A DNA stretch of 60,500 bases. Source: Chthoniobacteraceae bacterium (GTDB lineage: Bacteria; Verrucomicrobiota; Verrucomicrobiia; Chthoniobacterales; Chthoniobacteraceae). The notes under the pieces were generated by a model. That model saw only the letters and a list, made by a program, of their open reading frames with translations. It searched no databases and was not told the DNA's origin. A program made the translations under genes and the position numbers. Location: contig JANNXQ010000103.1 in NCBI GenBank assembly GCA_031409655.1, forward strand, positions 1-60,500. The letters run 5' to 3'. Below, piece by piece: positions 1 through 58,449 of the stretch. Every line of letters begins with the position of its first letter. Position 1 is the first letter of the stretch.

Positions 1-2879
1 TCGAGCACGGTGTCGTCGTAGCCTTCCCAGCCGATGCCGAAGCAATCGAGCGCGACGCCCTGCTTGCGATGCGCCTCGACCTTTTGCTTGAGCGCGTCCG
101 GGTTCACATCGCCGAGATTCGCCGCGCCGTCGGTGAGCAGCACGACGCGATTGATGCTGCCGGGCTGGTAATGCCGGAGCGCGGTCGCGTAGCCGAGGTC
201 GAGCGCGGCGCCGAGGTTCGTGCCGCCCTGCGGCGTGATCTCGCCGACGCGCGCACACGTTTCGCCGGCCTTGTCGCCCGCCACGCCATCGGCCCAGAGC
301 CGCGGAGTGCGGGCGAAAGTGACGACGCTCAGCTTGTCCTGTGGCTGCAATTGTGTGGCGAGCACGCGCAGCGATTCGTGCAGGATGCGCACGCGATCCG
401 CGCGTTCCATCGAGCCGGAATTGTCGAGCAGCAGCACGAGATTCAGCGCGCGCCCCGGCTGCCGGCCCGCCGCCGCCGTCTTCACTGAGAGGCGCACGAG
501 ATCGCGGTTTTGCGCGAAGGGATAACGCGCCCGTTCCGTGGTGCAGGCCAGCGCCGCACCCGCAGCGGGTTCCGGATCGCGGTAGTCGAAGGCATTGATG
601 AACTCCTCGCTGCGCACCGTCGCCAGCTCCGGCATCTGCCCCTTTTCCAGACTCGCCCCGGCGAGCTTGAAGGCGACGTCGCTGACATTGAGCGAGAACG
701 TGGAGAACGCATTCGCACTCGTTGCGATCTCCGGCTGCGGCACGGGCGTGGGCTCGGCGGGTTTCGGTGCAGTGGGTTTGTCGTCGGATTCCTTGAGCGC
801 AACCTGCTCTCTCACCTGCTCCAGCTTGGCCAGTTCTTTCACTTCGCTGACGGGCGCCCGGGTCGCCTCTGCCAGGCGATTCTGCGGTTGCGGCGTTGCC
901 TTCCCGCCACTCGAACGGAACAGACGCCCGGCAAGCGGGATGTCGCCCAACGCGTCATCCTTCGCCGTCTTTTCTGCGTCGGAGGGGCTCACGTCCGTCT
1001 TCGCCGTGGGTGTCCTCACGATCGGCTGGTTGATGAAGCCTTCGAACTCGGCGACCTCCGGCACGAGTCCCATATCAATGTTCGCTGGAAGATTGACCTT
1101 TCCGGCGGTCGTGAGCGGTTCGCTGGTCGCGTATGGATCCGCCACCGGTGTGTCGGAACGGCGGAACGAACTTACTCCCGAGACGTCCAATGTCTCACTT
1201 CCCCGGAAACGCGTTGCGACGGATGCGGTCCCCCGAGACTGATCGAGCGAATCATCGAGTTTCCCCTGAATCTGGAGTCCCACGACATCCTCCGGTTCGC
1301 GAGCGAGGCCTTGCGCCCGAGATTTCGACGCAAAGTCATCGCGGCCCGATCGTTTGAGGCCGTCCGCATCTGCGAGAGGCTCATTCGATCCCGCGAAGCC
1401 AAGGAGGTTCCGTTTGCTGGGGTCGGTCGGACTCTCTGCCATCTCCTTCTTCGCCACAGCGCCGGTGCTCCCCACAATGCCGTCGCTCAATTGGCCGACG
1501 TTGGATTCAAACCACAAGCCCGCTGCGTTTTTCTGATCTATGGCCGCGGCGAGCGCCTTCTGTTTGTCGACCGGTTGTTCCGTGGAGACGGTGCCGAAGC
1601 CCACGCTGTCGGTGAACTTCAGGGACGGTTTCTCCTCCTCAACGCCTCTGACGGTTCCGCCGCTAATCGTCGTCGCGCCCGTGTAGGTGTTCGGTGAGTT
1701 CAGCATCCAGGAGCGGTTGTTTTCCTGGTTTGCCGCTTTTTCGCGATCCTCTCCCAACGTGGCGAGCCCCAGCGCCGGTCTCGGCTCGACCTCCTCACCG
1801 CGGTTTTCTAAGCGATAAGCCGCGATGGGTTTCGGCGCGGGAGCAGACCCGAGGACGGTGGTCCCTTTTGCGAAAAAATTCTGGCTCGTCTCCGGTGCGC
1901 TGGGCGGGGTAGGAGTGGTGGAAGTGATGAAGACACCGCCCAGCGTGAGCGGAGCGTCCGAGGGCATCAGGGAGGGCAGGGGCGGCGTTTCTCCTGCGGA
2001 TTTGAATCCGCTGACCCGCTCGGTATCGGCGAGTTCCTTGCCACTGGCAGGGCCGGAAGTGGCCGCCCCGGAAGTTGTCACGCTCAAATCACCGGTCGCG
2101 AATCGGCGAAAGCTATGAGCAGGTGCTCCTAGTGCGAGAGGAGTCGGTGCCGGCGCGCTGGCGGGCGGAGATACGCTGCCGGTGGGAGACGTGAGGACCA
2201 AGGTCCCCGCGCCAGACTTCGTCAGGGTGGAAGTCCCGGCATTCGGCTGCGCGTAGAGGTCGTAGTTTTCGGCCTTCTCGGACGGGACGATAAATCTGGA
2301 TTCGCTCGTGATTTCCGATGAAGGGGCGATTCCTTCGGTGAAAGCCTTGTCGAGTTTCATCCCCTCCATTTCACGCCCATCGCGACTACCTCCCCCCCAG
2401 ACGCGGACCATTCCCGGTTGCGATCCCCACGCGGCGCCGGTGCTGTCCACTGCGGCGACCATTGACCGCACACTCGCATTCCGCGGCGAGAAACCGCTCA
2501 TCAACAAGGTCCCTCCGAGCAGCGCGATCAAGGACGCGGCGAGTCCGAGGGGCACGACCCATTTCCAATCGCGCCGCGGGATGACCACGACAGGCGCGGG
2601 TGCCGGTGCGGGTGCGCGGAAATGGGCGAGCAGGCGTTCGCGGCGTTCGGCGGAAAGTCGCGCGGGCAGGGGCGCGGCCGGAGGTTCGGGGATGGCGCTC
2701 GCTTCGCGGAGCAACTCGATCGCCTGCTGGAGGCGTGCGTGCAGCTTCGCGAGCCCGGGATCGGTGGCCATCTGCGCCCGCAGCGCGGCGGCTTCGGCGG
2801 GCGGCAGTTCGCCCATGAGCAGGGCGGTCAGGCGGATCTCGGTTTCCTCGCGCGGGGTGCGTGGCGTTTCGGGATTCAT
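1..2879 (-). CDS. Anti-sigma-like membrane protein with long linker and C-terminal vWA domain (YfbK-like); 3' end lies outside the window
   Basis: Manual translation of an open frame from ATG 2879, which overlaps the ECF stop as ATGA. N-terminal anti-sigma-like helix LTALLMGELPPAEAAALRAQM; one TM WVVPLGLAASLIALLGGTLLM; linker of about 580 aa; STFSLNVSDVAF..VRSEEFINAFDY; MIDAS motif LLLDNSGSM; GGTNL; VVLLTDG. Missing from the ORF track because there is no stop in the window. Confidence 0.9.
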   Translation of the reverse strand, partial: MNPETPRTPREETEIRLTALLMGELPPAEAAALRAQMATDPGLAKLHARLQQAIELLREASAIPEPPAAPLPARLSAERRERLLAHFRAPAPAPAPVVVIPRRDWKWVVPLGLAASLIALLGGTLLMSGFSPRNASVRSMVAAVDSTGAAWGSQPGMVRVWGGGSRDGREMEGMKLDKAFTEGIAPSSEITSESRFIVPSEKAENYDLYAQPNAGTSTLTKSGAGTLVLTSPTGSVSPPASAPAPTPLALGAPAHSFRRFATGDLSVTTSGAATSGPASGKELADTERVSGFKSAGETPPLPSLMPSDAPLTLGGVFITSTTPTPPSAPETSQNFFAKGTTVLGSAPAPKPIAAYRLENRGEEVEPRPALGLATLGEDREKAANQENNRSWMLNSPNTYTGATTISGGTVRGVEEEKPSLKFTDSVGFGTVSTEQPVDKQKALAAAIDQKNAAGLWFESNVGQLSDGIVGSTGAVAKKEMAESPTDPSKRNLLGFAGSNEPLADADGLKRSGRDDFASKSRAQGLAREPEDVVGLQIQGKLDDSLDQSRGTASVATRFRGSETLDVSGVSSFRRSDTPVADPYATSEPLTTAGKVNLPANIDMGLVPEVAEFEGFINQPIVRTPTAKTDVSPSDAEKTAKDDALGDIPLAGRLFRSSGGKATPQPQNRLAEATRAPVSEVKELAKLEQVREQVALKESDDKPTAPKPAEPTPVPQPEIATSANAFSTFSLNVSDVAFKLAGASLEKGQMPELATVRSEEFINAFDYRDPEPAAGAALACTTERARYPFAQNRDLVRLSVKTAAAGRQPGRALNLVLLLDNSGSMERADRVRILHESLRVLATQLQPQDKLSVVTFARTPRLWADGVAGDKAGETCARVGEITPQGGTNLGAALDLGYATALRHYQPGSINRVVLLTDGAANLGDVNPDALKQKVEAHRKQGVALDCFGIGWEGYDDTVL

Positions 2880-3493
2880 GGTGCGACGTCGGTTTTGACC
2901 AGTTCCAGGGCCATGGCTTTCAGCGCGTGATGCAGGAGATAGCCGACGTGCCCGACGGTGAGGCCGGTGCGGTCGCTGATCTCCTTGTATGAAAGGTCTT
3001 CGTTGAAGCGCAGACGGATCAGCTCGCGGCTGCGCGGGTCGAGGGTTTCGAGGACGAGGCGGACCAGCCCGATGCCTTCCCAGCGGGCGATCTGTTCGTC
3101 CGGCATCGGCTGCGAGTCGATGGCCTCGTTGGCCGGCGTTTCGCCGTCGGGCCCGGAGTCGCCGACGAGGACGATGCGTTTGGTGCGACGCTGATGATCG
3201 ACGGCGAGATTGTGGACCGTGCGATAGAGCCACGGCTGCGGAGTGCGGACCTGCTGGAATTGGGAGTGAAGTTTCATAAAGGCGTCCTGGACGATGTCCT
3301 CGGCGACCTGGAAATCGCCGAGCAACCGCCGGGCATACGCGAGCAGCGGCGACTCGAGGGCGGCAAAGACTTGTTCGATCGTCTGCCACGGCGGGGAAGG
3401 TGCGGCGCTTTCGTCCGGGCGGGTTACGGCCATCGTGAGCAGGTCGGTGGGGGCATCGCGGAGAGCTGTTTGGTGGCGAGTCGGGGACGACAT
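2876..3493 (-). CDS. ECF-family RNA polymerase sigma factor
   Basis: Region 2 AEDIVQDAFMKL/WLYRTVHNLAVDHQRR and region 4 LDPRSRELIRLRFNEDLSYKEIS. Start at ATG 3493 (alternative 3433). Confidence 0.92.
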   Translation of the reverse strand: MSSPTRHQTALRDAPTDLLTMAVTRPDESAAPSPPWQTIEQVFAALESPLLAYARRLLGDFQVAEDIVQDAFMKLHSQFQQVRTPQPWLYRTVHNLAVDHQRRTKRIVLVGDSGPDGETPANEAIDSQPMPDEQIARWEGIGLVRLVLETLDPRSRELIRLRFNEDLSYKEISDRTGLTVGHVGYLLHHALKAMALELVKTDVAP

Positions 3494-3503
3494 CGTTGGT
3501 GGG

Positions 3504-3530
3504 TAAGACGGACGATGCAGGGGTTTGTTA
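3504..3530 (-). promoter_or_regulatory. Putative autoregulatory ECF promoter
   Basis: Minus strand reads TAAC-N16-CGTCTTA just upstream of the sigma ATG, matching the typical AAC/CGTC ECF promoter layout. Confidence 0.5.
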
Positions 3531-3963
3531 GAAGAGGGCGCCAATCTCCTGCTCTTCAGTCCTCTTCTGTCGCGCTGCGTCTGCGCCTCGGGGTGGCCCA
3601 TCTTGTGCGGATGAAAACGACCAGCAACTCCACGGGCGGCACGCCGCCCCGTTTGTGCGCGATGTCCTGCAGCGCTTTCGGTCCGGGCAGCTCTGCGTCG
3701 CCGAGCACATCGCCACGCTCCCCGAGGCCAACGCGCTGCCCGAAAACCTCCGCCTCCACAACCACTCCCGCGAACGCCACCGCGAACTGCGCTCCACCCC
3801 GAAAGCCGCCTGGGATCTAGCGCTCCGTCCTCCTCTGATCGCACACCAATCGTCCGCCTTTGTTTGCACCACCACACGCCTCAGACACATTCTTGACTCC
3901 CCTCAGCCCGCCGGGCCAAATGCGCGCCGACTTTTAACCCCACCACTCCACCACCCCACGACC

Positions 3964-22865: not shown

Positions 22866-23975
22866 CTACACGAGCCGCTCGGGATTCAGTGCCTGGAGCG
22901 CCTTCGGCACAAAGACGCCGTCTTCGCGGATCACGCGGCCATCGAAGAGCATCCGCCCGCCGCCGTAGTCCGTCCGCTGGATATTCACGAGATCCCAGTG
23001 GACCTGCGAGCGGTTGCCATTCTCCGTCTCCTCGTAGCACTGGCCAGGCGTGAAGTGGAAGGAGCCGTTGATCTTCTCGTCGAAGAGAATATCGCGCATC
23101 GGGTGGAGGATGTGCGGATTAAAGGCGATCGCAAATTCACCGATGTAGCGCGCCCCGGCGTCGCTATCGAGGATGGCATTGAGCTTCTCGGGATGGTTCG
23201 CGGTGGCGTCGATGATCTTCCCGTCATTGAACTCAAGCCGCACATTATCGAACGCCGTCCCCTGATAGATCGTCGGGGCATTGAAGGTGATGTGGCCGCG
23301 CACGGAGTGCTTCACCGGCGCGGTGAAGACCTCGCCATCCGGGATATTGTGGGTGCCCCCGCAGGCCACTGCCGGGATGCCCTTGATGGAAAACAGCAGA
23401 TGGGTGCCGGGACCGACGATCTCCACTTTATCTGTCTTCATCATCAGCTCGCTGAGCGCCTTCATGCCGGTGGCCATCTTCCGATAGTCCAGCGTGCAGA
23501 CGCGGAAGTAGAAATCCTCAAAGGCCTCCGTGCTCATGCCCGCGGACTGCGCCATCGACGGAGTCGGCCAGCGCAGCACACACCACCGCGTCCTTTTCAC
23601 CCGCCAATCCAGCACCGCCTTCATCTTGCGCGAGACCAGCTTCATCTTCTCGGCCGGCACATCGCTCATCTCGGTGATGTTGTGCCCGCCGCGGAGCGCG
23701 ATGTAGGCGTCCATCTTCTTCATCTGCGAGAGCGAGTGCGCGGCAGCGATCTCGAGTTGGGCTTCACTGGCTTCGAGCGCCATCTCGCGGCTCACCCGGG
23801 CGTGATGGATCTGGACAAAAGGCACCGCCCCGATCTTCCGCACCGCGCGGATCAGGGCCACGGTCATCGGCTCCGGGATGTCAAAGCTGTCGATGAGCAC
23901 CTTGTCGCCTCGGACAAGCTGCGTGGAGTGGGTGACGAGCAGGTGGGCGAGCTTATCGCAACGGGGATCGTGCAT
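22866..23975 (-). CDS. M29 (AmpS/PepS-type) aminopeptidase
   Basis: [40 protein letters not shown]. Confidence 0.93.
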
Positions 23976-24129
23976 GGTCTGGGCAGACTGCGGAGACGCG
24001 GTGCAAAGGGGAAGTGGAAAGATGCCGGGATTCGCTGGTGGTTTCCCGGCGACCTTGTTTACGAGAAAATCCTTTTTTTGCTTGGCTGCCCGCGACTGCA
24101 TTGTATTTACATTGGCAATCATTCCCCCA

Positions 24130-24819
24130 GTGAAATTCCCCACCTCACCGCTCCGCTTTCGCCGTTCCCCCGTTGCCCGCCAATCTGGCTTCAGCTTGGT
24201 CGAAGTCGCCCTCGCCATCGCGGTGATCGCCTTTGCTTTCGTCGCCCTCCTCGCCCTCCTCCCCGCCGGTCTCACCACCTTCCGCCGCGCGCTGGACATC
24301 TCCATCTGCACCCAGATCGCCCAGCGGATCGTCTCGGATGCGCAAGGCGCGGACTACGATGTGGTCATGGATCGCGACAATCTTCCTGCTTATTCCAAAG
24401 GAAATGACTTCTCCTTCCGCGCGCCGAAAGTCCTCGAACCCGGCGTGCGCTTCTTCGACGAGCAGGGGAATGAGGTGGTGGGGGTGCCTAAAGACGGAAA
24501 GGCGGCGACGAAGTGGGCGGACTTGTCCGCCGACGAGCAGTTGCGGGTGGTGTACAACGTCAATGTCCGGATCGTCCCCCGGGTCACCGTCCCGACGGGT
24601 GGTTCGTCTGGGGCCGATGGGTACCCATTGCCTCGGGCGGCCAGGGAACTCGGTAATCTGGCCCTGATGACCGTGCAAATCGCGCATAACCCGAGCGGCG
24701 TATCGCTCAAACTGAGCGAGGCCGATGCCGACGACTCCAAAGCACCCACTCGCAATCTGTGGCTGCCCCGGGACGGGGTCGATGTCTTTACCTATTCGGC
24801 TTACATCGCCAGAAACTAA
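24130..24819 (+). CDS. Verru_Chthon cassette protein B (prepilin-type)
   Basis: Prepilin cleavage site [22 protein letters not shown] start. Confidence 0.85.
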
Positions 24820-26063
24820 TGAACCTCCGCTCCCATCGCGCCGGAACTGCCCCGGCAGCCTTCACCATCATTGAACTTCTCGTCGCCACGGTGGTTTTCT
24901 CCGGCCTTCTCTTGATCCTCGCTGTCACGACGAATCAAACCGCCGAGGTCTGGCGTCGCGGGGCCGCGAAGGTCGAGCAATTCCAAGGTGCGCGCCGCGG
25001 CTTCGAATCCATGACGCGCCGGATGAGTCAGGCGACGCTCAATACCTATTTCGACTACGACTACGAGATTTCTGGCAGCGGCAAAACCAGAAAACTGGAT
25101 GTGTCCAAGCCGCCGCTTAGTTACTCCCGGCAGTCCGAGTTGCGCTTTCGCAGTGGTCCCATGGAAAAGCTCGCGCCCGAGGAAGGCGTTTTTCGCCCAA
25201 CGCACGGGGTCTTCTTTCAGGCTCCCCTCGGTTTGGTGGACGACGACGATGTGCTGGAGTTTGAGCGGCGCCGCCTGAAGCCGCTGGGCGATTTGCTCAA
25301 TTCCTGGGGTTACTTCATCGAAGTTGGCACGGATGAGAAGATCATCCCTCGTTTCTTAAAAGACGTCGTTCCGCCCCGCATCCGCTCCCGACTGATGCAG
25401 TTCATGGAGCCGACCGAACGTGTGCAAATCGACGACCCGAGCGCGACGCCGGATGACAGCGGTAAGTTTTTGTTGGTGAAGAACGAAAATTGGGACCTCC
25501 CGTGGAATGGCTGGTTCACTGCGCCGCTCAAGCGCAAGGATGATATACCAGTCCGGGTGCTCTCGGAAAACATCATCGCCCTCGTCATTCTCCCGCGACT
25601 GTCCCAGCAGGATGAAGCTGCCCGGCTCAAGAAGAATCTCTCGGTCCTGACTCCCTTTTACGACTACGATTCCAAGCGCAATAGCAACCGCGCCACGGCC
25701 ATCGCCGACCCGCTCAACCCAAAGATCAAGGGCGATGCCAAAGACGGGCCGGAAGCCGTCAATCCCAAGAATCAACTGCCGCCTGTCGTCACCATCGCCA
25801 TGGTGGCCATCGATGAAATGGCCGCCGAACGGCTCAAGGACAAGGCCACCAAGGACGACCTAACGCTGGGCCTGAAGTGGGAGGGCCTTTTTGAAGACGC
25901 AAAGAAGCTCGAAGATGACCCGACCACCAAAGGGGACGATCAGTCCGGCGACGGCGACATCTACAAACTTGAGCAGCAGTTACTCGCGAAAAAGATCAAT
26001 TATCGAGTCTATACCTCCAATGTCACCATTCGCGGCGCCAAATGGAGCCGCGCGCAGAAGTAG
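24819..26063 (+). CDS. Verru_Chthon cassette protein C (prepilin-type)
   Basis: AFTIIELLVA, SQATLNTY, YSRQSELRF, HGVFFQAPLG, NQLPPVV..MVAIDE, AKWS. Confidence 0.88.
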   Translation: MNLRSHRAGTAPAAFTIIELLVATVVFSGLLLILAVTTNQTAEVWRRGAAKVEQFQGARRGFESMTRRMSQATLNTYFDYDYEISGSGKTRKLDVSKPPLSYSRQSELRFRSGPMEKLAPEEGVFRPTHGVFFQAPLGLVDDDDVLEFERRRLKPLGDLLNSWGYFIEVGTDEKIIPRFLKDVVPPRIRSRLMQFMEPTERVQIDDPSATPDDSGKFLLVKNENWDLPWNGWFTAPLKRKDDIPVRVLSENIIALVILPRLSQQDEAARLKKNLSVLTPFYDYDSKRNSNRATAIADPLNPKIKGDAKDGPEAVNPKNQLPPVVTIAMVAIDEMAAERLKDKATKDDLTLGLKWEGLFEDAKKLEDDPTTKGDDQSGDGDIYKLEQQLLAKKINYRVYTSNVTIRGAKWSRAQK

Positions 26064-26092
26064 CCTGAACCCCCCAAAAAACCTACTCCACC

Positions 26093-29000
26093 ATGAAAGC
26101 AAACCCCTCCCTCCAGAAGCGTGGCGTCGCCCTCGTCATCGTCCTCGTCTTCGTCGTCCTGCTCTCCGTGTTCATCCTGAGTTTCTTCACCAACTCCCAG
26201 AATGAACTCACGGCCGCCCAGAGTTTCTCCGGTGAAATCAGCGCGCAGCAACTTGCCGAAACTGCGACCTCCGTCGTCATGGGCCAGATCCGCGAAGCCA
26301 CCACCCGCGAGTACGTGGCGTGGGCTTCCCAACCCGGGATGCTTCGCACCTATGGCGACACCACCAAGACCGGTAAGGAAGTCATCTCGGACAAGGCGGA
26401 CGCCTTCTTCAAACTCTACTCCTCCGACGATATGATCATCGGTCGCAGTGAGATGAGCGCTTTTCAGAAGATTTATAGCACGACGGGTGAGATTCCCTTT
26501 GAGGGCGTCGGTGGCACCAAGCCAAACGAAGGTTGGGATAGCTTGCCTGCGCTCTACACCGATCTGAACAGCCCGATCATTGTCGCTGAACCTCCGGCGA
26601 AAGGCGCTACGGAAGACGACAAGTACCGGGTCAAGTTTCCGATCATTGACGGCCACGACCTGCAGACGATCACCCTTCCAGATATCCCCGCCGTGCCGCG
26701 GACGGAAAAGGGGAAGACCGTGCTCACCTACGATGCGACCTCGGAGAGAGGCGCTTCGGTGCCGGACAAAAAGCCCGACATCGAGGGCTTCGGCGTCGAT
26801 CCCGCCTATGTTCCGAAATACAAGGGTGGCCGGCTCAGTTCCGACAACAACCCCGTGCCGATGCCGGTCAAGTGGCTCTACGTGCTCCGTGATGGGAGCA
26901 TGACGGCCCCGACAGGATCGGAGCCCGACCCAGCCACGAAACTCGGCACGCGGGCCAAGTGGGACGAGTCGGCAATCGTCCGGCCCACCAAGGAAAATCC
27001 CATCGTCGGACGGATGGCCTTCTGGACGGATGACGACACCTGCAAGGTGAACATCAACACTGCCGGCGGCTTTAATACCAAAGACATGGATGCCGGCCAA
27101 TACTCGGAATCAACTTACGCTGGCTCCTATTGGGACCAGCCGCGCACCTACACGAGATTTGATTTCGGCGAAGGAAACGATGATGGAAAAAACGGAGAGG
27201 ATGGATCAATCGTCATGGGCGGTTTGTCGATTACCCAGCCCGTGGCCAAGGAGTATCAGCGTTATCCCGGGCATCCAGCGACGACTTCGCTGAACCTTGT
27301 CTTTAAGAACCTGCTCAACTCCGAGCAAATGTACTCGCTCCTGCCGCGCCTCACGAAGGGTGGATCGAAAAATGGCACGACTCGATTCTATAGCGACAAG
27401 TCGCAAATCGAATTGGCGGAAGGAGAAGATGAAGACGAGGTGACGACGCCGCTGTCCCCGAAGCGCGAACGCCTCTTCGCCTCAGTGGACGAATTCCTTT
27501 TCAAGCGCCGGGAGACTGAGCAATCAGAATATCGGGAAACGAATGACGGCTATCTCAAGCGCAAGGAAAAATTCACCATGAGCGAAGGGATCACGCCGGA
27601 ACTGATTGAGCGGCTGCGCTTCTTCCTCACCGCCCATAGCCGCGCTCCTGAACTCAATCTTTTCGGACGCCCCCGGGTAACGATCTGGCCCTCCTACCCC
27701 GATGCCGCCCGGTTAAACGCCTCGGATCGACTGCTCAATTTCTGCTCCATCATTGGCCCCAAAACTCAGGCCGATGGAACGGCTGTCGCCCCGGCGGATA
27801 TCAAGCTCTTTGAATTTCAACGAAGCGACCCCTATAGCGCGACGTTTGATTTCGATGGGACCAACAAGAGCAATCCCAAATACGGCGACTATCCGAAGAA
27901 GAACGGCAAGACCAGGAATCAGGTGATGTATGAGTATCTTCAGGAAATGACGAAGGAATCCGTGCCCGGTTTCGGTGGCGGCAGCTTTTTGGCCAAGTAC
28001 AAAAGTGTCGATCGAGACCAGATCCTCACAAGTATCTTTGATTACATGCGGTGTGTGAACATGCGGGACTCGACGCGGGACAAGCAAATTGCCGACGAGA
28101 GGGGTTTTGGCACGACGCCGAAGGCACCCAAGAAGGCGGTGGACTACCAGGAAATCGAAAAGTACAAATTCGCGCCACTGGGTATCGTTGTGCCCATCAA
28201 AATCAATAGTCCATCGGACACCAAGGGATTCGGGCGGTTCCCCATTTTTTCAGAAGCTGCCTTGGTTCTCTATCACACCGGGTACCGCAATAAGAATTTA
28301 TCTGCGAACACGCCGTTCCTGTCTTTGAGCGCGCTTAACAACCGCCTAAATAGCGACTCCCGGTTCAAAGGGAAGGCACCACCAAATCCCAACGATCCAA
28401 ATGATAAGGATTGGGATGGTAAAGAAGGGGTGACGCATAATTTCATCAGTGCATTCCTCATTTTTGAGTCCTTCAACCCGATGATGGGATATGCCCCGAC
28501 TCGGACGCCGAGTAATTTCTCTGCCGATCGGGTACGGACGATCGTCGAGGTGACCGGCCTCGATAAATTCGCAATAACGGGTATCGCGAGTCCGGCGAGT
28601 GGGCTGAGCACGGTTCTCGACCCTGGGGTTGGCCGTGGCTTTGGCGGTTTGAGGTTCCCAAAGACGGCGACGAACATTTTTGCCCATTCCTCCGGGGGGT
28701 CTTATCACGGTCGGAATCTTGGAGGCTCCGAAGGTTGGCTCAGTATGTTGAGAGGATCGTGGTTTTGGCAGGCCACCCCTGTTGCGGGCACACCGCCGGC
28801 CAAGCTTGCTCCGAACAAATGGGGCACGACGCCCCCTGACCAAACTGGAAAGACTTTTCCCCATTGGTATGAATTCCAAGCGCAGCCTCATGGGATCTGC
28901 GTCGAAGCACCGCCGACTCCGGAGCTCGCGCCTTCCGTGAATGCGGGGAAGCAACAGGAGTACTACGATTACCTCAAGGAGCCTGCTTCCTGGCAGAAAC

Positions 29001-30946
29001 TTCAGCTCACCGGGGCAGATCTCGATGTTGTGGTAAAATTTGGATTCGAAGGGAAGGAGATCGACGTTCGTAAGCTGCGGATCAGTTTTCCGTCAGCCGA
29101 GGTGCCGGTTCCTACGGATCACACTTGGGACGATCCAGGTGGGTTTGCGCTGGACCGAACGCCGGATGGCAAGAATCCCAATGAAGTTCCCACAGCCCTA
29201 TTGGCATCTGATCGAAAGGATGGTAACGGCGCATTGCTCGTGAACGAGGAAGGGGTGAAGACTTTTGGGGGGCGTTTGCTTTCCCCACCAAGGGAGCAAA
29301 GTACTAACACGAATGCCGTCCTTGATAACTCAAACATCCAGGGCCGGACCTCTGGCGGTGTGTTCAGCGCGACTTCGGATAACCAGGCCGATAACAAGCC
29401 ACCGGGGTTCAACCATACGAACCGCTGGCGTCAGCTTTTCCAACCTGGGGATGTGATTAAGAGCATTGTTTTCGGTGCCAATGGCGACGACCCGCGGATT
29501 GCGGCGATCAACGATGATGCGAGCAAGGATAATTACGCACCGCACCCTGACTACGATAAGTCGGATAAACGGCATGCTCAGATCTTGAGGACGGCCGCGG
29601 GGCCACCGGCGATCGCCACGAATACCACGAAGTATTTCACGAACACGACGTTTGGGAAAATTGGCTCAAACCTGGCCGGAAATTATGCGGCCAATAATGG
29701 AGCGGACCTTCCGAGCACTATCAATGGCGTCAAAATTGGGTTTGGCGCACCTGTCAAGGGCAGCACCGGCAAGCCGGGCGACTTTGACACCGGTCTGGGA
29801 AACCTTCCTGACGGGGCTTATACAGGTAAGTCGGATGAAGGAAACCCGGTGTTTCGGATCAGGGTGAACTACAGAGATGCTAACGATAAGCCGCAGTGGT
29901 ATTGGCGGTACCCACACCCCTATTTCGATTGGGCCTATGAGGAGACGTTCGATACGTTCTTCACGCCAAATCGGCAGACTCCTTCCGCGGTGGTCTTCGG
30001 TTCACTCCCGATTGGCAGGAACGGGCACTGGACGACGTTGTGTTTCTCTCCGGTATCGGCGGCCGAGACGTCCGATCCGAGTGGCCGGTATCTGCACCCA
30101 GGCCGGGAGAAAGGTTTTGCCCGTGATCATTTGCTGCTCGACCTGTTTAATATGCCGATCGTCGAACCTTACGCGATCAGTGAGCCATTCTCGACCGCCG
30201 GGAAGGTGAACCTTAACTTTGCGATGATGCCTTTCGGTCATATCGAGCGGAGCACCGCCTTGCGGGCTGCCTTCCACTCGGTCCGGGTGTCCGCTTTCCC
30301 GAAAGAAGATGTCGGCATTTACAAGAGTGCGAATCCTGCGGCCCAAGGCGGTGGAGGTCGAGATACGAATTATCGGTCGCCGGTGGACCGCGACATGACG
30401 ATCCGCGCTTTCAAGGACATCTTCGACCTGTTTAAGACCGATCAGAATTTGGGGATTTTCAAATCGGCATCCGAGATTTGTGATCGCGCGCTCTATCCGA
30501 AACAAGTGCAAGGAAACGTCATTCGTGGCGCGGCTGGCATCAAGTACACGGCTCCGTCCTTCAATAAAGATCCAGACTTCTACCTCAAGACCACCTTCTG
30601 GGGGAGTAACTCTCTGACCGGTGATAACATGCGGGAGAAGCCGTACAGTGATCTTTATCCCCGGGTCACCACGAAATCGAACACCTACACGGTGCATGTC
30701 CGCGCCCAGGCCCTCCGGCAGACTGTGCAGTCCGCCGCAGCGGGAGTGTGGGACGAAAAGAAGGATCGTTTGATTGGCGAATACCGGGGTTCGTCCACCG
30801 TGGAGCGTTATATCGATCCTGAAGATGCACGGTTTGATCCTCGGAGCACGGGGATCGCGGACGTCGATCGAATCGATGTCGATAGTGAACCTGTGGAGAA
30901 GGCGTATCGGTTCCGGGTGATTAATACGAAACGGTTTGTGCCGTAA
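26093..30946 (+). CDS. Verru_Chthon cassette protein A
   Basis: RG/VALVIVL, AWASQPGM, MPVKWLYVLRDG, GRMAFWTDDDTCKVNINTA, EYQRYPGHPA, RAPELNLFGRPR, EPFSTAGKVN, TTKSNTYTVH. Confidence 0.9.
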   Translation: MKANPSLQKRGVALVIVLVFVVLLSVFILSFFTNSQNELTAAQSFSGEISAQQLAETATSVVMGQIREATTREYVAWASQPGMLRTYGDTTKTGKEVISDKADAFFKLYSSDDMIIGRSEMSAFQKIYSTTGEIPFEGVGGTKPNEGWDSLPALYTDLNSPIIVAEPPAKGATEDDKYRVKFPIIDGHDLQTITLPDIPAVPRTEKGKTVLTYDATSERGASVPDKKPDIEGFGVDPAYVPKYKGGRLSSDNNPVPMPVKWLYVLRDGSMTAPTGSEPDPATKLGTRAKWDESAIVRPTKENPIVGRMAFWTDDDTCKVNINTAGGFNTKDMDAGQYSESTYAGSYWDQPRTYTRFDFGEGNDDGKNGEDGSIVMGGLSITQPVAKEYQRYPGHPATTSLNLVFKNLLNSEQMYSLLPRLTKGGSKNGTTRFYSDKSQIELAEGEDEDEVTTPLSPKRERLFASVDEFLFKRRETEQSEYRETNDGYLKRKEKFTMSEGITPELIERLRFFLTAHSRAPELNLFGRPRVTIWPSYPDAARLNASDRLLNFCSIIGPKTQADGTAVAPADIKLFEFQRSDPYSATFDFDGTNKSNPKYGDYPKKNGKTRNQVMYEYLQEMTKESVPGFGGGSFLAKYKSVDRDQILTSIFDYMRCVNMRDSTRDKQIADERGFGTTPKAPKKAVDYQEIEKYKFAPLGIVVPIKINSPSDTKGFGRFPIFSEAALVLYHTGYRNKNLSANTPFLSLSALNNRLNSDSRFKGKAPPNPNDPNDKDWDGKEGVTHNFISAFLIFESFNPMMGYAPTRTPSNFSADRVRTIVEVTGLDKFAITGIASPASGLSTVLDPGVGRGFGGLRFPKTATNIFAHSSGGSYHGRNLGGSEGWLSMLRGSWFWQATPVAGTPPAKLAPNKWGTTPPDQTGKTFPHWYEFQAQPHGICVEAPPTPELAPSVNAGKQQEYYDYLKEPASWQKLQLTGADLDVVVKFGFEGKEIDVRKLRISFPSAEVPVPTDHTWDDPGGFALDRTPDGKNPNEVPTALLASDRKDGNGALLVNEEGVKTFGGRLLSPPREQSTNTNAVLDNSNIQGRTSGGVFSATSDNQADNKPPGFNHTNRWRQLFQPGDVIKSIVFGANGDDPRIAAINDDASKDNYAPHPDYDKSDKRHAQILRTAAGPPAIATNTTKYFTNTTFGKIGSNLAGNYAANNGADLPSTINGVKIGFGAPVKGSTGKPGDFDTGLGNLPDGAYTGKSDEGNPVFRIRVNYRDANDKPQWYWRYPHPYFDWAYEETFDTFFTPNRQTPSAVVFGSLPIGRNGHWTTLCFSPVSAAETSDPSGRYLHPGREKGFARDHLLLDLFNMPIVEPYAISEPFSTAGKVNLNFAMMPFGHIERSTALRAAFHSVRVSAFPKEDVGIYKSANPAAQGGGGRDTNYRSPVDRDMTIRAFKDIFDLFKTDQNLGIFKSASEICDRALYPKQVQGNVIRGAAGIKYTAPSFNKDPDFYLKTTFWGSNSLTGDNMREKPYSDLYPRVTTKSNTYTVHVRAQALRQTVQSAAAGVWDEKKDRLIGEYRGSSTVERYIDPEDARFDPRSTGIADVDRIDVDSEPVEKAYRFRVINTKRFVP

Positions 30947-37700: not shown

Positions 37701-37865
37701 CCGCTCGGGCGCGCCGTGATCGGCGGCCTGGCCTTTGCCACGCTGGCGACGCTCTTCATCCTGCCGAGCGTCTTTGCTCTGCTCACCACGAAGAACGTGC
37801 AGTCTCCCTCGCTCGACCCCGATGACGCAGCGAGCACCCACTTTCAATCGGCAATGCTGGGAAGA

Positions 37866-37895
<30 letters not shown>
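34722..37895 (+). CDS. RND efflux transporter permease
   Basis: TLGGLALAVGILVDEATV, SRLRPILMTS, APLGRAVIGGL; probable TTG start at 34722. Confidence 0.92.
36198..36260. repeat. REP-like palindrome in frame inside the RND gene
   Basis: CAAGGAGTAGGGGCGCCCTCGCCCC..GGGGCGAGGGCGCCCCTTCTCCTTG. Confidence 0.8.
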
Positions 37896-38985
<1,090 letters not shown>

Positions 38986-38990
38986 GCAGG

Positions 38991-40419
<1,429 letters not shown>

Positions 40420-46906: not shown

Positions 46907-49423
46907 TCACTCCGCGCGTGGATGGAGGGCGAAGGCGCTGGCGTTGACTTCGAGTTTCAGGCCCGAGAGTTCCGCGACGTAGTTGAGGACATCCACGACT
47001 GAGACGTTCGTCAGATTCAGGGTGATCTTCACGTCCCCACTCGTCTTCGATGGCATCACGAGGATGTTCACGGACTTCTTTTGCGGATCGAGATCGCGAC
47101 TCTTGGCCCGGAGAAAATCCACGCACTCCGTGACCGTCGCGTCTTTGAACTCCACGCTGGGCAGGACGATGCTGCGGGCCCGCTTGAGCAGCGCGGCCTC
47201 GGGCGTTCCGGCGGCTGGTTCCGCAAGGGCTGCCTGTCCTTCTACTGGTTGGAGCAGGATCGCGTCAGGCGTGGTGCCGATCTTGAGATTGGCGAGCCCG
47301 GTGAGGTACTTCAGCGCTTCGGAAAGCGGGATATCCTCCAGGCTCAGCGACAGCTTGGTGGTGTCGCCCTCGGGCAGCTTCAGCACGATGTTCACGCCGG
47401 TCTTTTCCGGATCGAGGGCGCGGCTTTTCGCCGTGAGGAAGGTGACGGCCTCCGTCACGGTGGCGTCCACGAATTCGATCTTCGGGAGGATGATCTTCTC
47501 CGCTTTCTCCATTGCCGAGAGCTTTGCTGGCGCGGGCGTCGCTTTCTTCGGCTGCACTTCGGCGTTCTGCGCGAGGATGGTCGCGTTCGCAGTTTCCACC
47601 TTTACGTCGTCGCTCGCGGTGACGGCGCCGGTGGCCTTGCCCACGGTGATGGTGTCTGCGGTGATCGTGACCGCGCTCGCCTCGACCTGCGGCTTCAGGA
47701 CTTCCGCGCTCGCGAGCACGAAGAGCCGGCGCTTCGGAGCCGCAGCCCCTTCTGCCGCTCCGAGTTCGAGGAGCACGGATTGGCCGGGCCACACGGTGAC
47801 TTCGGTGTTCATCTTGTGCGTGGAGAAGACTGCCTCTCCGCGATGACCTGCGGGCAGCGATTTCCCGGAGCCTGCCGTGATGGTGGGATCCGCGAGCGGC
47901 TTGGCAGGGTCGGGCACGGATGTCATCGGCTTTCCTGGCGCATCGAGATCGCGAAAGCCCATGAACTCGACGACCTTGGGCTCGAGCATCAGGGCTAGGG
48001 AGCCTTCTTTCTTCACGTCGGCCAGAATTCCGAAGGTGACGCCAACGTATTTCGTCTCGTAGGCCTTCGGCTCCAATCCACCGGTCTTTGGGTCCTTCTT
48101 CCAATCCGTCGGGTAGCGGAACTCGCGCTCGATCTCGATGGTGGCGTGCTGCCCCGACCTCGTGGTCACGCTCGGCGCTGAGAGAAGATCGACGCCTTTG
48201 GTGGGACGCAAAGCTTTCAGAAGGGTGGCTTCCTGCTCTTTCGTGAAGACTCTCACTACCGTTGGGATTCCAGCCTTGTTGCTGGCGAAATCTTTCATCC
48301 CCGGCAGCGCTGAAAACGCATCTGAAGCATCCGATGCGATCTGGAAAAACTTGGTCTCCACCTTGATCTGCAGAACGTCCGCGTCGGCGCCCTCACTTTT
48401 CGGCTGCGCCTTTTTCTCCGCACCCTGAAGTTGCGCGATGCTGCAAAGAGTGAGCGTGAGCGCTGCGCCGAGGACACCGCACGTCATCGTCGTGCCGCTC
48501 AGCGTCCGCCGGTCGCGGTCCGCGTCCACGATGGCCCGCACTCGAGTCTCCAGCGTGGAAGGCTGTGCCATCGCGAGGGCATGGCGCGCGGTGAATCGCT
48601 CCGTGCCCAGCGCGCGCACCACGTCCACGAGTTGCGTGGCGTAATCTGCGGCACTCGCTCCGCTGCGCAGCACGAGATCGTCGCAGGACTGCTCCTGGGC
48701 CACGCGCATCGACCGCGCCGCCGCCCAGATCAGCGGATTCATCCAGTAAATGGCGCAGGCCAGATCGAGCAGCAGCCGGCTCAGACAATCGCGCCGGCAA
48801 ATGTGGCCGAACTCATGCCTCAGCGCCGCGGTCAACCGCGCCTCGCTCCAGTCCAGCGCCGCCGTAGGCAGCAGTACGATGGGCCGCCACACGCCCGCCG
48901 CCAGCGGCACGCGGCACTCCGTGGATTCGCGGATCTCCACACCCGCCGGCCAGTCCTCCACGAGCCCGAGCCAGCGCTCCGCCGCTATCGGATGGCTCCG
49001 TGCCGCCAGCCGCGCGAGCCGCCAGCGCACCCCGGCGCGATGCAGCAGCACGACGCCCATTCCCGCCAGCCAGGTGAGCATGCCCACCGCGGCCCAATTC
49101 ACCGTCACGGAAGTGCGCGCGCTCGGCGGCGCCACGTCAGTCGCTGCCGTGCTGATCGAGATCGGCGACGCGACGCGCGTCACGACCGCAGGTGCCGCAG
49201 ACACGCGCTGCGCATTCGGCGCCCAGACGTAGATCCATTGCGGATCGGCGAGCTTCGTGAGTGGCAGCAGCAGGAGGACGAGGAGCGCCGCGAGCCAGAT
49301 CATGTGGCGATTCGCCGCCGAAGCGCGCCGCCACACGGAGGCCGCGACACCGGCGAGCAACAGGATGGCCGCGCTCTTGAGAAAAAGATCGAGCAGCAGA
49401 GGAAAGGAGGATGCGAGAGTCAT
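46907..49423 (-). CDS. BlaR1/MecR1-type M56 peptidase with secretin-like, OstA-like and two secretin N-domain-like extracytoplasmic modules
   Basis: LRHEFGHICRRD, YWMNPLIW, QEQSCDD. Then DLLSAPSVTTRSGQHATIEIEREFRYP, ETKYVGVT, EPKVVEFMGF, VFSTHKMNTEV; two copies of ILP.IEF.DATVTE.V.FL..KSR.LDP. Confidence 0.9.
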   Translation of the reverse strand: MTLASSFPLLLDLFLKSAAILLLAGVAASVWRRASAANRHMIWLAALLVLLLLPLTKLADPQWIYVWAPNAQRVSAAPAVVTRVASPISISTAATDVAPPSARTSVTVNWAAVGMLTWLAGMGVVLLHRAGVRWRLARLAARSHPIAAERWLGLVEDWPAGVEIRESTECRVPLAAGVWRPIVLLPTAALDWSEARLTAALRHEFGHICRRDCLSRLLLDLACAIYWMNPLIWAAARSMRVAQEQSCDDLVLRSGASAADYATQLVDVVRALGTERFTARHALAMAQPSTLETRVRAIVDADRDRRTLSGTTMTCGVLGAALTLTLCSIAQLQGAEKKAQPKSEGADADVLQIKVETKFFQIASDASDAFSALPGMKDFASNKAGIPTVVRVFTKEQEATLLKALRPTKGVDLLSAPSVTTRSGQHATIEIEREFRYPTDWKKDPKTGGLEPKAYETKYVGVTFGILADVKKEGSLALMLEPKVVEFMGFRDLDAPGKPMTSVPDPAKPLADPTITAGSGKSLPAGHRGEAVFSTHKMNTEVTVWPGQSVLLELGAAEGAAAPKRRLFVLASAEVLKPQVEASAVTITADTITVGKATGAVTASDDVKVETANATILAQNAEVQPKKATPAPAKLSAMEKAEKIILPKIEFVDATVTEAVTFLTAKSRALDPEKTGVNIVLKLPEGDTTKLSLSLEDIPLSEALKYLTGLANLKIGTTPDAILLQPVEGQAALAEPAAGTPEAALLKRARSIVLPSVEFKDATVTECVDFLRAKSRDLDPQKKSVNILVMPSKTSGDVKITLNLTNVSVVDVLNYVAELSGLKLEVNASAFALHPRAE

Positions 49424-53543: not shown

Positions 53544-55077
53544 ATGTTCGCCGCGCTCTTCCTGCCCCACTTCCGTCTCCAGGCGGCGCTGCGTTTCCGC
53601 GAGGAACTGTGGGCGCAGCCGATCGCGCTCGTCGATGAACAGTCCGGCAAAGGGCTCATCCTCGACGCCACGCCGCCGGCTGTTGCGGCCGGAGTGAGCG
53701 CCGGCCTCACTTCGCCGCAGGCCATGGCCCGCTGTCCGGAGCTGCGCCTGCTGCCCCAGGCGGTGGCGCAGGAGAAAAATGCCGCCGCCGTGCTGCTCGA
53801 GGTGGCGGGCTCGCTCTCGCCGGATTTCGAAGCCACCGCGGCTGGCATCGTGACCGTCGATGTCAGCCGCGCGAAGATTTCCGATTGGCCGCGCTGGGCG
53901 GCGGCGGTCGTCGAGCGTCTCGCGGCGCTGCAACTCCGCGCGCAGCTCGGCCTCGCGGTGAATCCCGATCTCGCCCTGCTCGCCGCGCGCCGCGCCGGGC
54001 CGGTGCTCATCGTGCAAAATGCCGCCACCTTTCTCGCCGATATCGCCATCGCGGAAGTCGATCCCTCGCCCGAGCTCGTCTCCATCCTGCGCGACTGGGG
54101 CATCGGCCATCTCGGCCAGCTCGCGCAAGTGCCGAAGGATGCGCTCATCGATCGTCTCGGCCCTGCCGCGGGTGAGCTTTGGCAGCGCGCCATGGGCGGC
54201 AAATCAAGGCTGCTACGGCTCGTGCGGCCGGTGGAGGAATTCGTCGAGGCCTTCGACTTCGAGCACGAGATCGAGACCGTGGAGCCGCTGCTTTTCGTCC
54301 TGCGCCGCTTCCTCGAGCAACTCGTGCTGCGGCTCGCCGGAGCGTATCGCGTGGCCGCGCGGATGACGCTGGTAGTAGCGCAGGCTTCCAGCCTGTGGCA
54401 GTCGGACAGGCATTCCTGCCTGTCCACCCGGCAGGCTGGAAGCCCGTCGGACTCCGACAGGCAAGGATGCCTGCCCTACTACACGCGCACCTTCACTATC
54501 CCGGCGCCGACGCTCGATGTGGAGGTGCTCTTCCGCATCCTGCACACGCATCTCGATGGACTCACGCTGGACCAATGTCCGACCGGGGTGCAGCTCGCGA
54601 TCGAGCCAGTGTGTGCGGACCACCGGCAGCTCCGGCTCTTCGAAAGTCCGTTGCGCGATCCGAATCGTTTCGGCGAAACGCTCGCGCGGCTGAGTGCGCT
54701 CGTCGGTGCGGAGCGCGTGGGGGTGCCGGAGCCGGAGGATACGCATCGGCCGGATCGCTGCCGCATCGTCGAGCCGCGCTTCCACACGGCGGGCGAGGAG
54801 AAAGGTGGCGCGCTCGATCTGGCCGTGGGCCTGCCGCTGCGGCGCTACCGCCCGGCCTTTCCTGCCCAGGTGCAGCTCGTGCGACACACGCCGGCTTTCG
54901 TTTTCTCGGAGAAAATTCACGGGGAGATTGTCGAAGTCGCGGGGCCGTATCGGCTCTCGGGAGATTGGTGGGAAAGCGAACGCTGGAGTGCGGAGGAGTG
55001 GGACGTCGAGATGGCGGATGGCGCGCTCATCCGCCTCGCGAAACGCGGCGACAGTTGGTTTGTGGAAGGGAGCTACG

Positions 55078-55094
<17 letters not shown>
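53544..55094 (+). CDS. imuB: ImuB, inactive Y-family polymerase homolog
   Basis: AGVSAGLT..QAMARCP, WGIGHLGQL, QLRLF clamp-binding motif, GPYRLSGDWW. Confidence 0.88.
54372..54482. repeat. GTAG-type REP doublet in frame inside imuB
   Basis: GTAGTAGCGCAGGCTTCCAGCCTGT...ACAGGCAAGGATGCCTGCCCTACTAC, 111 nt. Confidence 0.88.

Positions 55095-58449
<3,355 letters not shown>

Follow-up and report, generated by a model that had tools for sequence, protein, structure and literature searches.

Copies of the cell's own envelope proteins in the hypervariable linker of a verrucomicrobial vWA anti-sigma factor

A gene for a membrane-anchored anti-sigma factor (3..2879, minus strand) opens a stretch of 60,500 nucleotides of Chthoniobacteraceae DNA (assembly GCA_031409655.1, contig JANNXQ010000103.1, positions 1 to 60,500; hereafter the window). 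The periplasmic linker of this protein was described in a first-pass annotation, made from the letters alone, as a mosaic of short peptides matching other envelope proteins, possibly an array of baits or decoys. The locus thus raises the question of whether such a mosaic exists, how it came about and what it might do. Our analysis indicates that the mosaic is real, family-wide and under selection; the regulator is of a known type, and the mechanism would, if confirmed, be new for bacteria. In the following, G000 is the organism's own genome, C numbers are its contigs or open reading frames (ORFs), and L and P numbers are homologous loci and proteins.

The 959 codons within the window, truncated by the contig end, encode four parts, all on the minus strand. 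A helical, N-terminal cytoplasmic anti-sigma domain (2595..2879; NF052375 match below cut-off) is followed by a single transmembrane (TM) helix recognised by hydropathy (2499..2561), a hypervariable linker of about 586 residues (741..2498; 320–1298 residues among homologs) and a YfbK-type head with vWF_A and vWA matches and an intact metal ion-dependent adhesion site (MIDAS; 3..740). One TM helix is thus combined with a vWA domain fused to DUF3520 (PF12034 is listed for 119 of 120 homologs). DUF3520 continues off the contig, and two versions of the missing gene end, with the start of the next gene, are found on contigs C34 and C173. A single-sequence AlphaFold model of the whole protein has a predicted local distance difference test (pLDDT) value of 37.6, low in the vWA part too, and FoldIndex is borderline at 0.07.

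The linker was compared, ungapped, with all 31,108 six-frame ORFs of G000 after removal of its own ORF, using 80 shuffled linkers (maximum 38.9 bits) and the reversed linker (34.4 bits) as the null. Four motifs exceed all 80 shuffled linkers. The strongest is the second half of an autotransporter (PATR) repeat (residues 393–411; 1647..1709; 55.2 bits, E 1e-7 to the cell's own autotransporter C272), followed by a copy of the EPYAISEPFSTAGKVNL motif of VccA (residues 578–597; 1089..1148; 50.7 bits), which shares 14/20 amino acids and 45/60 nucleotides with its counterpart and falls at TIGR02600 positions 1052–1073. The other two, secretin 601–617 (50.2 bits) and LGDIP 644–656 (42.3 bits), belong to an eroded copy of the C-terminal segment of the secretin on C274 (912..1079; E 4e-8), where EFEGFIN, QPI and LGDIP islands keep the donor order while 98 donor residues (771–868) have shrunk to 56. 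The FIN-QPI junction corresponds to the loss of 28 codons that lie, in the donor secretin, between two ATCAAY hexamers. The peptides that had been called GspD/PilQ secretin signatures do match the cell's own secretin, but EFEGFIN is specific to the Amuc_1098 family, to which the C274 donor belongs, and is no general GspD/PilQ signature.

Other pieces are weaker taken singly. The first half of the PATR repeat, LTKSGAGTL (2190..2225), is borderline alone at 38.4 bits, slightly below the shuffle maximum, and both stretches together pass the Pfam and NCBIfam cut-offs (PF12951/TIGR02601). AWGSQPG, a copy of the WASQPG motif of VccA (2397..2432; 8/12), scores 32.4 bits alone and 40.2 against the VccA family profile, compared with a maximum of 22.1 over 171 shuffled linkers; WASQPG cores are present in 30 of 171 homologous linkers. 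A possible decayed relic of the VccA motif FKLYSS (1800..1826) aligns weakly with AFKLYS of ortholog P0004 (E 0.044 only). All peptides quoted in the first-pass annotation lie where it had placed them and both identities to VccA are as given there; a third proposed VccA copy, GFKSAGE, has to be dropped, having no match in the own-genome ORF search and recurring as a pattern in 1 of 232 linkers.

The VccA donor (Verru_Chthon cassette protein A; TIGR02600, 808 bits) is itself encoded in the window (26093..30946, plus strand), with the donor motifs at 26318–26353 and 30155–30214. The Verru_Chthon cassette B, C and A genes stand there in a row (23878–30946). Pfam and NCBIfam scans of the linker return the same three donor families, two stretches each, and an exact-pattern search of G000 finds each of four cores in only two ORFs, the donor and the anti-sigma gene.

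Could such a picture arise from a faulty assembly, or from low-complexity stretches that resemble each other by chance? The gene does lie at the end of a contig, in a bin of 306 contigs with 5% contamination. A chimeric assembly is ruled out by a contig from run X1 that spans 676–3218 without any difference; pieces from X3 and X4 agree, all three runs being from the same study and X1 possibly the source sample. As the pattern also recurs in more than 90 homologs, one cultured species included, we regard this explanation as hardly credible.

That recurrence was measured on proteins sharing the head motif. From 271 such proteins, 75 without a detectable N-terminus or TM helix and 25 duplicates were set aside, which left 171 distinct linkers. 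Against G000 ORFs at E<1e-3, 94 of these match, compared with 3 of 171 when locally shuffled; in a larger set at E<1e-4 the counts are 94 of 232 and 0 of 232. The expectations of the first-pass annotation that real linkers would out-match shuffled ones, and that homologous linkers would carry such motifs, are both borne out. The 33 matched ORFs are all exported or membrane-anchored, as judged by Pfam and reading of N-termini, a class that makes up roughly one third of G000 genes by a crude count; two of the 33 are partial frames matched via PATR, and two share the secretin domain and are hence non-independent donors. Counted by linkers, the donors are the secretin (41), VccA (27), Wzc (26), autotransporters (at most 11 each), the major pilin (9), GspD N-domains (5) and BamA (4, one copy being its C-terminal strand), with an outer-membrane barrel, TPR and prenyltransferase-fold proteins as further donors. 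Wzc matches are confined to residues 61–393, and the cytoplasmic kinase is never matched. Library scans of 60 homologs, blind to G000, give the same donor families; SMC matches in one homolog were read as coiled-coil noise.

The linkers themselves are very different from one another. Heads of orthologs are 60–97% identical (63–100% for the 150 best matches among 50%-identity cluster representatives), and their linkers are unalignable. P0001 and P0004, for example, have 93% of head DNA in common, and their linkers align only in short patches, mainly donor motifs. A second vWA anti-sigma subfamily, with about 32% head identity and two paralogs in G000, behaves likewise: 18 of 50 linkers match, compared with 1 of 50 when shuffled, the donors being secretin, VccA, BamA, Skp and TPR proteins. 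Paralogs C112:171-2816 and C113:6321-8792 (L299, L300) have heads 97% identical and near-identical N-termini with different linkers, the first carrying a 12/14 match to another part of VccA and the second a PATR-like stretch. When 20 similar low-complexity segments behind TM helices of G000 proteins were compared with six donors, only the C112 paralog matched. Copied fragments are 17 to 452 residues long. The pieces had been thought too short to fold, which is true of this protein, but relatives carry copies of 170–450 residues from the secretin N-domains or the Wzc periplasmic region; the lengths indicate that the copies form a continuum from whole domains down to peptides.

How were these pieces acquired? 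The secretin encoded in the same genome ranks first or second among 38 secretins for 7 of 11 anti-sigma linkers. The copy in genome G022 (P0075) shows 74% identity to the secretin of that genome, compared with 55% for the next best, and is sister to the former in a tree with a Shimodaira-Hasegawa-like support (SH-aLRT) of 100. Six Chthoniobacter copies form a separate clade beside the L260/L264 secretins, and at least two secretin captures have therefore taken place; the tree holds 21 of the 38 secretins, those with the anchor motif, with the secretins of L201 and L210 among those left out. VccA motifs are restricted to one clade of the head tree (60 of 88 rows, versus 1 of 83 in the other). 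VccA scores over cut-off in 0 of 5 genomes tested from the second clade; in place of VccA motifs, linkers of that clade have the LGDIP core, helices from pilins and a Wzc piece in circularly permuted order. Motif sets thus follow the envelope genes of each lineage, as the first-pass annotation had anticipated.

Within homologs the motif order is mostly constant (e.g. 9/9, 11/11) and not collinear with the donors; free shuffling of the order is ruled out by this constancy. Recent gene conversion from present donors is ruled out for this linker, its motif DNA being 67–78% identical with many synonymous differences. Own Wzc ranks first among Wzc proteins for two of three Wzc copies and is tied in one. 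Repeated refreshment from own Wzc was considered and set aside, a 33-row tree giving no resolution and the copies resembling each other about as much as own Wzc; the Wzc copy is read, from these comparisons, as an old inherited capture. No recombinase or reverse transcriptase is found beside the gene among the 25 largest neighbour clusters. Taken together, the patterns indicate that the linker is an inherited mosaic with losses and fresh captures.

Exchange between relatives may contribute. The head DNA (3–740) is 93% identical to that of L179 and the N-terminal domain (2545–2879) just 72%, a contrast hinting at recombination that swaps linker modules among relatives. Run X1 also contains a contig of a relative in which positions 836 and 2789 are connected through dissimilar sequence.

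Are the copies kept for their own sake? Compared with their own secretins, copies have ratios of nonsynonymous to synonymous substitution (dN/dS) of 0.09–0.18 at dS 0.9–2.9 in 8 of 9 comparisons, with one saturated, which indicates that the secretin copies are under relaxed but real purifying selection. The short cores also appear to be retained selectively. The LGDIP core is present in 39 of 171 linkers, while the equally conserved secretin motif just upstream is present in 1 and two others in 0 and 2; kept VccA motifs occur in 19–34 of 171 linkers and four control VccA motifs in 0, 0, 0 and 2, all such counts being phylogenetically non-independent. We take the LGDIP core to be the secretin's amphipathic helical loop. 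In the part of the source available, this loop is given, without its sequence, as the most conserved secretin region, tied to first membrane contact (PMC6532946).

These numbers bear on the simplest alternative, in which the linker is a tolerant spacer that needs only length, solubility and exportability. The insertions that survive would then be pieces of exported proteins, with cores persisting through detection bias and occasional gene conversion. Such a spacer is consistent with the four-fold range of linker lengths, with the many members that have no detectable motif and with the occurrence of the same capture in unrelated membrane proteins. It is also consistent with linker dN/dS values of 0.4–0.8 in close pairs, the motifs being not clearly more constrained (dN/dS values for close pairs here and below refer to the pairs among those listed). 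It leaves unexplained why one donor motif is retained and its neighbour, which would be just as detectable, is not (39 versus 1). About half of the codons for identical residues differ from the donor (7/14, 6/13, 7/12), which argues against recent conversion; Wzc copies keep about half of their residues while their synonymous sites are saturated (proportions of nonsynonymous and synonymous differences, pN 0.23–0.34 and pS 0.75–0.80); and every own-genome DNA match of the linker with E <0.02 is in frame with the donor gene. We give the spacer a low probability.

A second alternative gives the copies a positional role: they would anchor the protein at pilus, secretin, capsule or BAM (beta-barrel assembly machinery) complexes, or at membranes through amphipathic cores, and the MIDAS vWA head alone would read the signal. 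The head is indeed far more conserved than the linker (dN/dS 0.02–0.16 in the closest pairs), with an intact MIDAS, and its model (pLDDT 85.5) is closest to the ArnAB, ITIH1 and Sec23/24 folds, which bind peptides or proteins. Long copies correspond to whole interaction domains (STN/N-domains, the Wzc periplasmic region), and a pilin-like helix stands right behind the TM helix in 44 of 171 linkers, two of them with the pilin FTLxE start. However, donors from unrelated machines occur within one linker (49 of 171 linkers combine two or more donor types), and a 13-residue core or one half of a split PATR repeat would anchor the protein poorly. Docking, too, is in our estimate an improbable account.

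Other features just behind the membrane are recorded here as such. In L243, L249, L119, L250 and L251 a helix from a pilin N-terminus, with remnants of FTLxE or LIE, seems to have taken the place of the anti-sigma TM helix. The pattern PPDFxAE, from a further donor family, occurs just after the TM helix in 12 of 232 linkers (e.g. P0006, P0010, L180) and in none of the shuffles; three TM-anchored G000 proteins (C194, C195, C273) have it at this position too. Release of the sigma factor by prepilin peptidase was considered and rejected: none of 44 pilin-like TM helices was scored as having the pilin-like E5 pattern, and the two with FTLxE have no preceding Gly.

What does the protein regulate? 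An extracytoplasmic function (ECF) sigma factor is encoded directly upstream (2876..3493, minus strand; Sigma70_r2, Sigma70_r4_2 and TIGR02937 over cut-off), overlapping the start of the anti-sigma gene; the overlap is 4 nt in 42 of 97 loci, and a sigma homolog is found at 119 of 155 loci, the anti-sigma gene lying at +1 of it. The sigma factor modelled with the N-terminal 95 residues of the anti-sigma factor scores 0.71 (best control 0.01; run contact agreement 86%; partner pLDDT at least 80), a mark reached by 116 of 157 solved pairs and 2 of 215 mismatched pairs. The model is a likeness to solved complexes, which exist for such pairs, rather than proof of binding. The zinc-binding (ZAS) motif HxxxCxxC occurs in 0 of 171 homologs.

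A promoter of the sigma operon is predicted at 3503..3535 (minus strand; CTAAxAA, 15 nt, GTC). With a score of 29.6 it is the sole G000 site above the best shuffled-genome score (21.4), and the pattern, with the conserved motif TCTAAGAAA / GTGTCA, precedes 89 of 97 distinct homologous sigma genes. No site above 14 is found at 17 donor and paralog loci examined, and donors as members of the sigma regulon were rejected on this basis and that of the single G000 site; these predictions suggest a regulon made up of the operon alone. About 14 nt separate the predicted -10 from the first ATG of the sigma gene (window 3493–3500), with ACGATG conserved in 54 of 98 upstream regions, and the transcript is possibly leaderless.

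A third gene for a membrane protein of more than 2100 residues lies downstream at 115 of 130 loci that have a long downstream ORF. It matches no whole-protein Pfam family in eight examples (one with a LamG insert) and no PDB sequence, and its Atlas clusters are only unnamed ones. One such protein, L292:7073-15052 (minus strand; genome of L204), contains a 58-residue insert 69% identical to G000 ORF C193:7412-7834, and the same piece is also present in linker P0157.

The architecture matches that of anti-sigma factors of groups ECF226 and ECF289 (PMC7826278; bioRxiv 10.1101/2019.12.11.873521). The taxonomy fits ECF226 (Verrucomicrobia) and not ECF289 (Proteobacteria 100%). In the parts of PMC7826278 available, the group descriptions contain neither a linker mosaic nor a conserved third gene, both of which are present here, and no member is described as studied. 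ECF226 is described there without a conserved promoter, whereas one is conserved here, and the promoter given for ECF289, CCCAAGGA (-35) and CGTCTxA (-10), differs from the motif above. Our literature search, from which most subscription papers were out of reach, found no description of such a self-copy mosaic.

On this evidence we lean slightly towards a reading in which the linker is a sensor array of self-mimics: copies would be recognised like the originals, leading to proteolysis of the anti-sigma factor and induction of the giant protein. The tether repeatedly takes up in-frame copies of the cell's own envelope proteins, drawn from their periplasmic or surface portions. Copies enter long, deletion then trims them, and selection maintains them at the protein level, in many cases only as a single conserved core. 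The cores would most likely serve as proxies for the real proteins, so that whatever recognises the original sites would bind or cut the anti-sigma factor too. By analogy with other TM anti-sigma factors, the altered stability would lead to regulated intramembrane proteolysis that frees the ECF sigma factor. The promoter and synteny suggest that the freed sigma factor turns on its own operon, giving more sensor and the giant inner-membrane protein, the presumed effector.

Several observations weigh against this sensor reading. At the thresholds used, 63 of 171 linkers have no VccA, secretin or PATR motif. Amino-acid changes are 1.6 to 15 times more numerous on copies than on donors, and identities of cores relative to flanks are inflated, the cores having been located by donor profile. 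In close pairs the whole-linker dN/dS far exceeds that of the head (0.4–0.8 versus 0.02–0.16), and in five close ortholog pairs the motif/other-linker values (0.44/0.76, 0.17/0.37, 0.47/0.58, 0.51/0.42, 0.85/0.49) are lower for motifs in three and higher in two. Linkers with short motifs rank their own secretin low (P0001 9, L180 18, L192 10), one linker has no match, and motif presence is patchy on the head tree, requiring 10–29 changes. Finally, membrane proteins with no sigma link (L265, L294) also carry pieces of their own secretins, and capture alone therefore does not imply signalling.

If the copies are sensors, the recognisers could be host partners, such as assembly partners, chaperones and periplasmic proteases, or foreign attackers, such as phage, predator or bacteriocin proteins. 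The first possibility falls well short of even, and the second a shade below it. Within the sensor reading host partners are weighted somewhat higher. Assembly and quality-control factors accord with how long the same cores have been retained, foreign attackers with the fast turnover of the copies.

Several known systems offer comparisons. Plant nucleotide-binding leucine-rich repeat (NLR) receptors incorporate, lineage by lineage, copies of host proteins as integrated decoys, which diverge faster than their originals. As in these, the pieces found here are homologous to, and derived from, proteins of the host lineage; the present case differs in being bacterial and periplasmic, with many donors per chain, mostly short cores and an attacker that is only a candidate. 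The bait region of alpha-2-macroglobulin, to which the first-pass annotation had likened the linker, is a variable, low-complexity stretch that could offer cleavage sites; we know of no bait region made of copies of the cell's own proteins. That protein relies on a thioester trap, which is absent here (Pfam and NCBIfam scans of the anti-sigma protein gave no macroglobulin domain or thioester trap), and the output here is transcription. A bait mechanism is, by analogy, one of several that would be compatible with the data.

Among bacterial envelope responses, RseA/DegS monitors unassembled outer-membrane proteins. Psp, according to the portion of the source consulted, detects mislocalised secretins and induces a protective response (PMC3467454); G000 encodes a PspA homolog. 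Both detect the real substrate via a receptor, whereas here the regulator itself carries copies of substrates. DdvA/DdvS of Myxococcus xanthus likewise comprises a TM anti-sigma factor with a large periplasmic part and a small dedicated regulon, but its published account, in the sections available, describes a folded TPR-CHAT sensor, a zinc-bound anti-sigma domain and control of CBASS (cyclic oligonucleotide-based antiphage signalling) and CRISPR genes rather than of a giant membrane protein (PMC11506125). TM-tethered vWA force transducers, present in Verrucomicrobia, share the TM helix, a Pro-rich linker (theirs disordered) and the YfbK-like vWA head; the excerpts available give them a linker of about 100 residues, SHLS or TPH motifs, tolQR-like neighbours and no anti-sigma domain (PMC12204202). 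The conserved neighbours here are the sigma factor and the giant membrane protein, and not tolQ/tolR-like genes.

Secretin pieces were also seen outside the anti-sigma family. L265 (G043:C470), L294:4724-9598 and L295–L298 are large inner-membrane proteins unrelated to the anti-sigma factor with an inserted secretin N-region; the L265 insert has its nearest match (64%) in the secretin of the same genome, and the insert is absent from the L294 homolog of G000 on C90. In the window, a BlaR1-type M56 peptidase sensor (46907–49423, minus strand) has a periplasmic part that matches the cell's own secretin in several stretches at 26–50% identity, comprising a barrel segment and two STN-like domains, and possibly represents the same capture in another sensor family. 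An unrelated observation concerns a dispersed palindromic repeat in G000, perhaps a REP (repetitive extragenic palindromic) element, which reads EHRTSNIEHRT...MFDVRCSMF in dozens of frames and sometimes starts real genes (e.g. window 37720–39111 and 54694–55630).

By analogy with the plant receptors, these proteins might be a bacterial counterpart of integrated decoys, in which unrelated receptors of the PVC (Planctomycetes-Verrucomicrobia-Chlamydiae) group capture fragments of their own envelope genes and keep the conserved and unmutable sites as lures. We propose this tentatively, with confidence a little under even; the receptors would be the two vWA anti-sigma subfamilies and possibly M56 sensors and giant membrane proteins. 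Should the linker be a mere tether, it still provides a clear natural series of domain capture trimmed to motifs. If the copies do act as lures or proxies, the receptor remakes its input region out of proteins of the same cell, a sensing principle undescribed for bacteria in the literature searched; the family would then offer a first handle on the function of ECF226/289-type regulators and YfbK heads, and the cores would point to short stretches of secretins, pilins, BamA and Wzc recognised strongly enough to select for copies. Under the decoy reading, if true, a single protein would signal that pili, secretins, BAM, capsule exporters or autotransporters are under attack or have failed to assemble, and the kept cores would map, for each envelope machine, the sites that are vulnerable or recognised.

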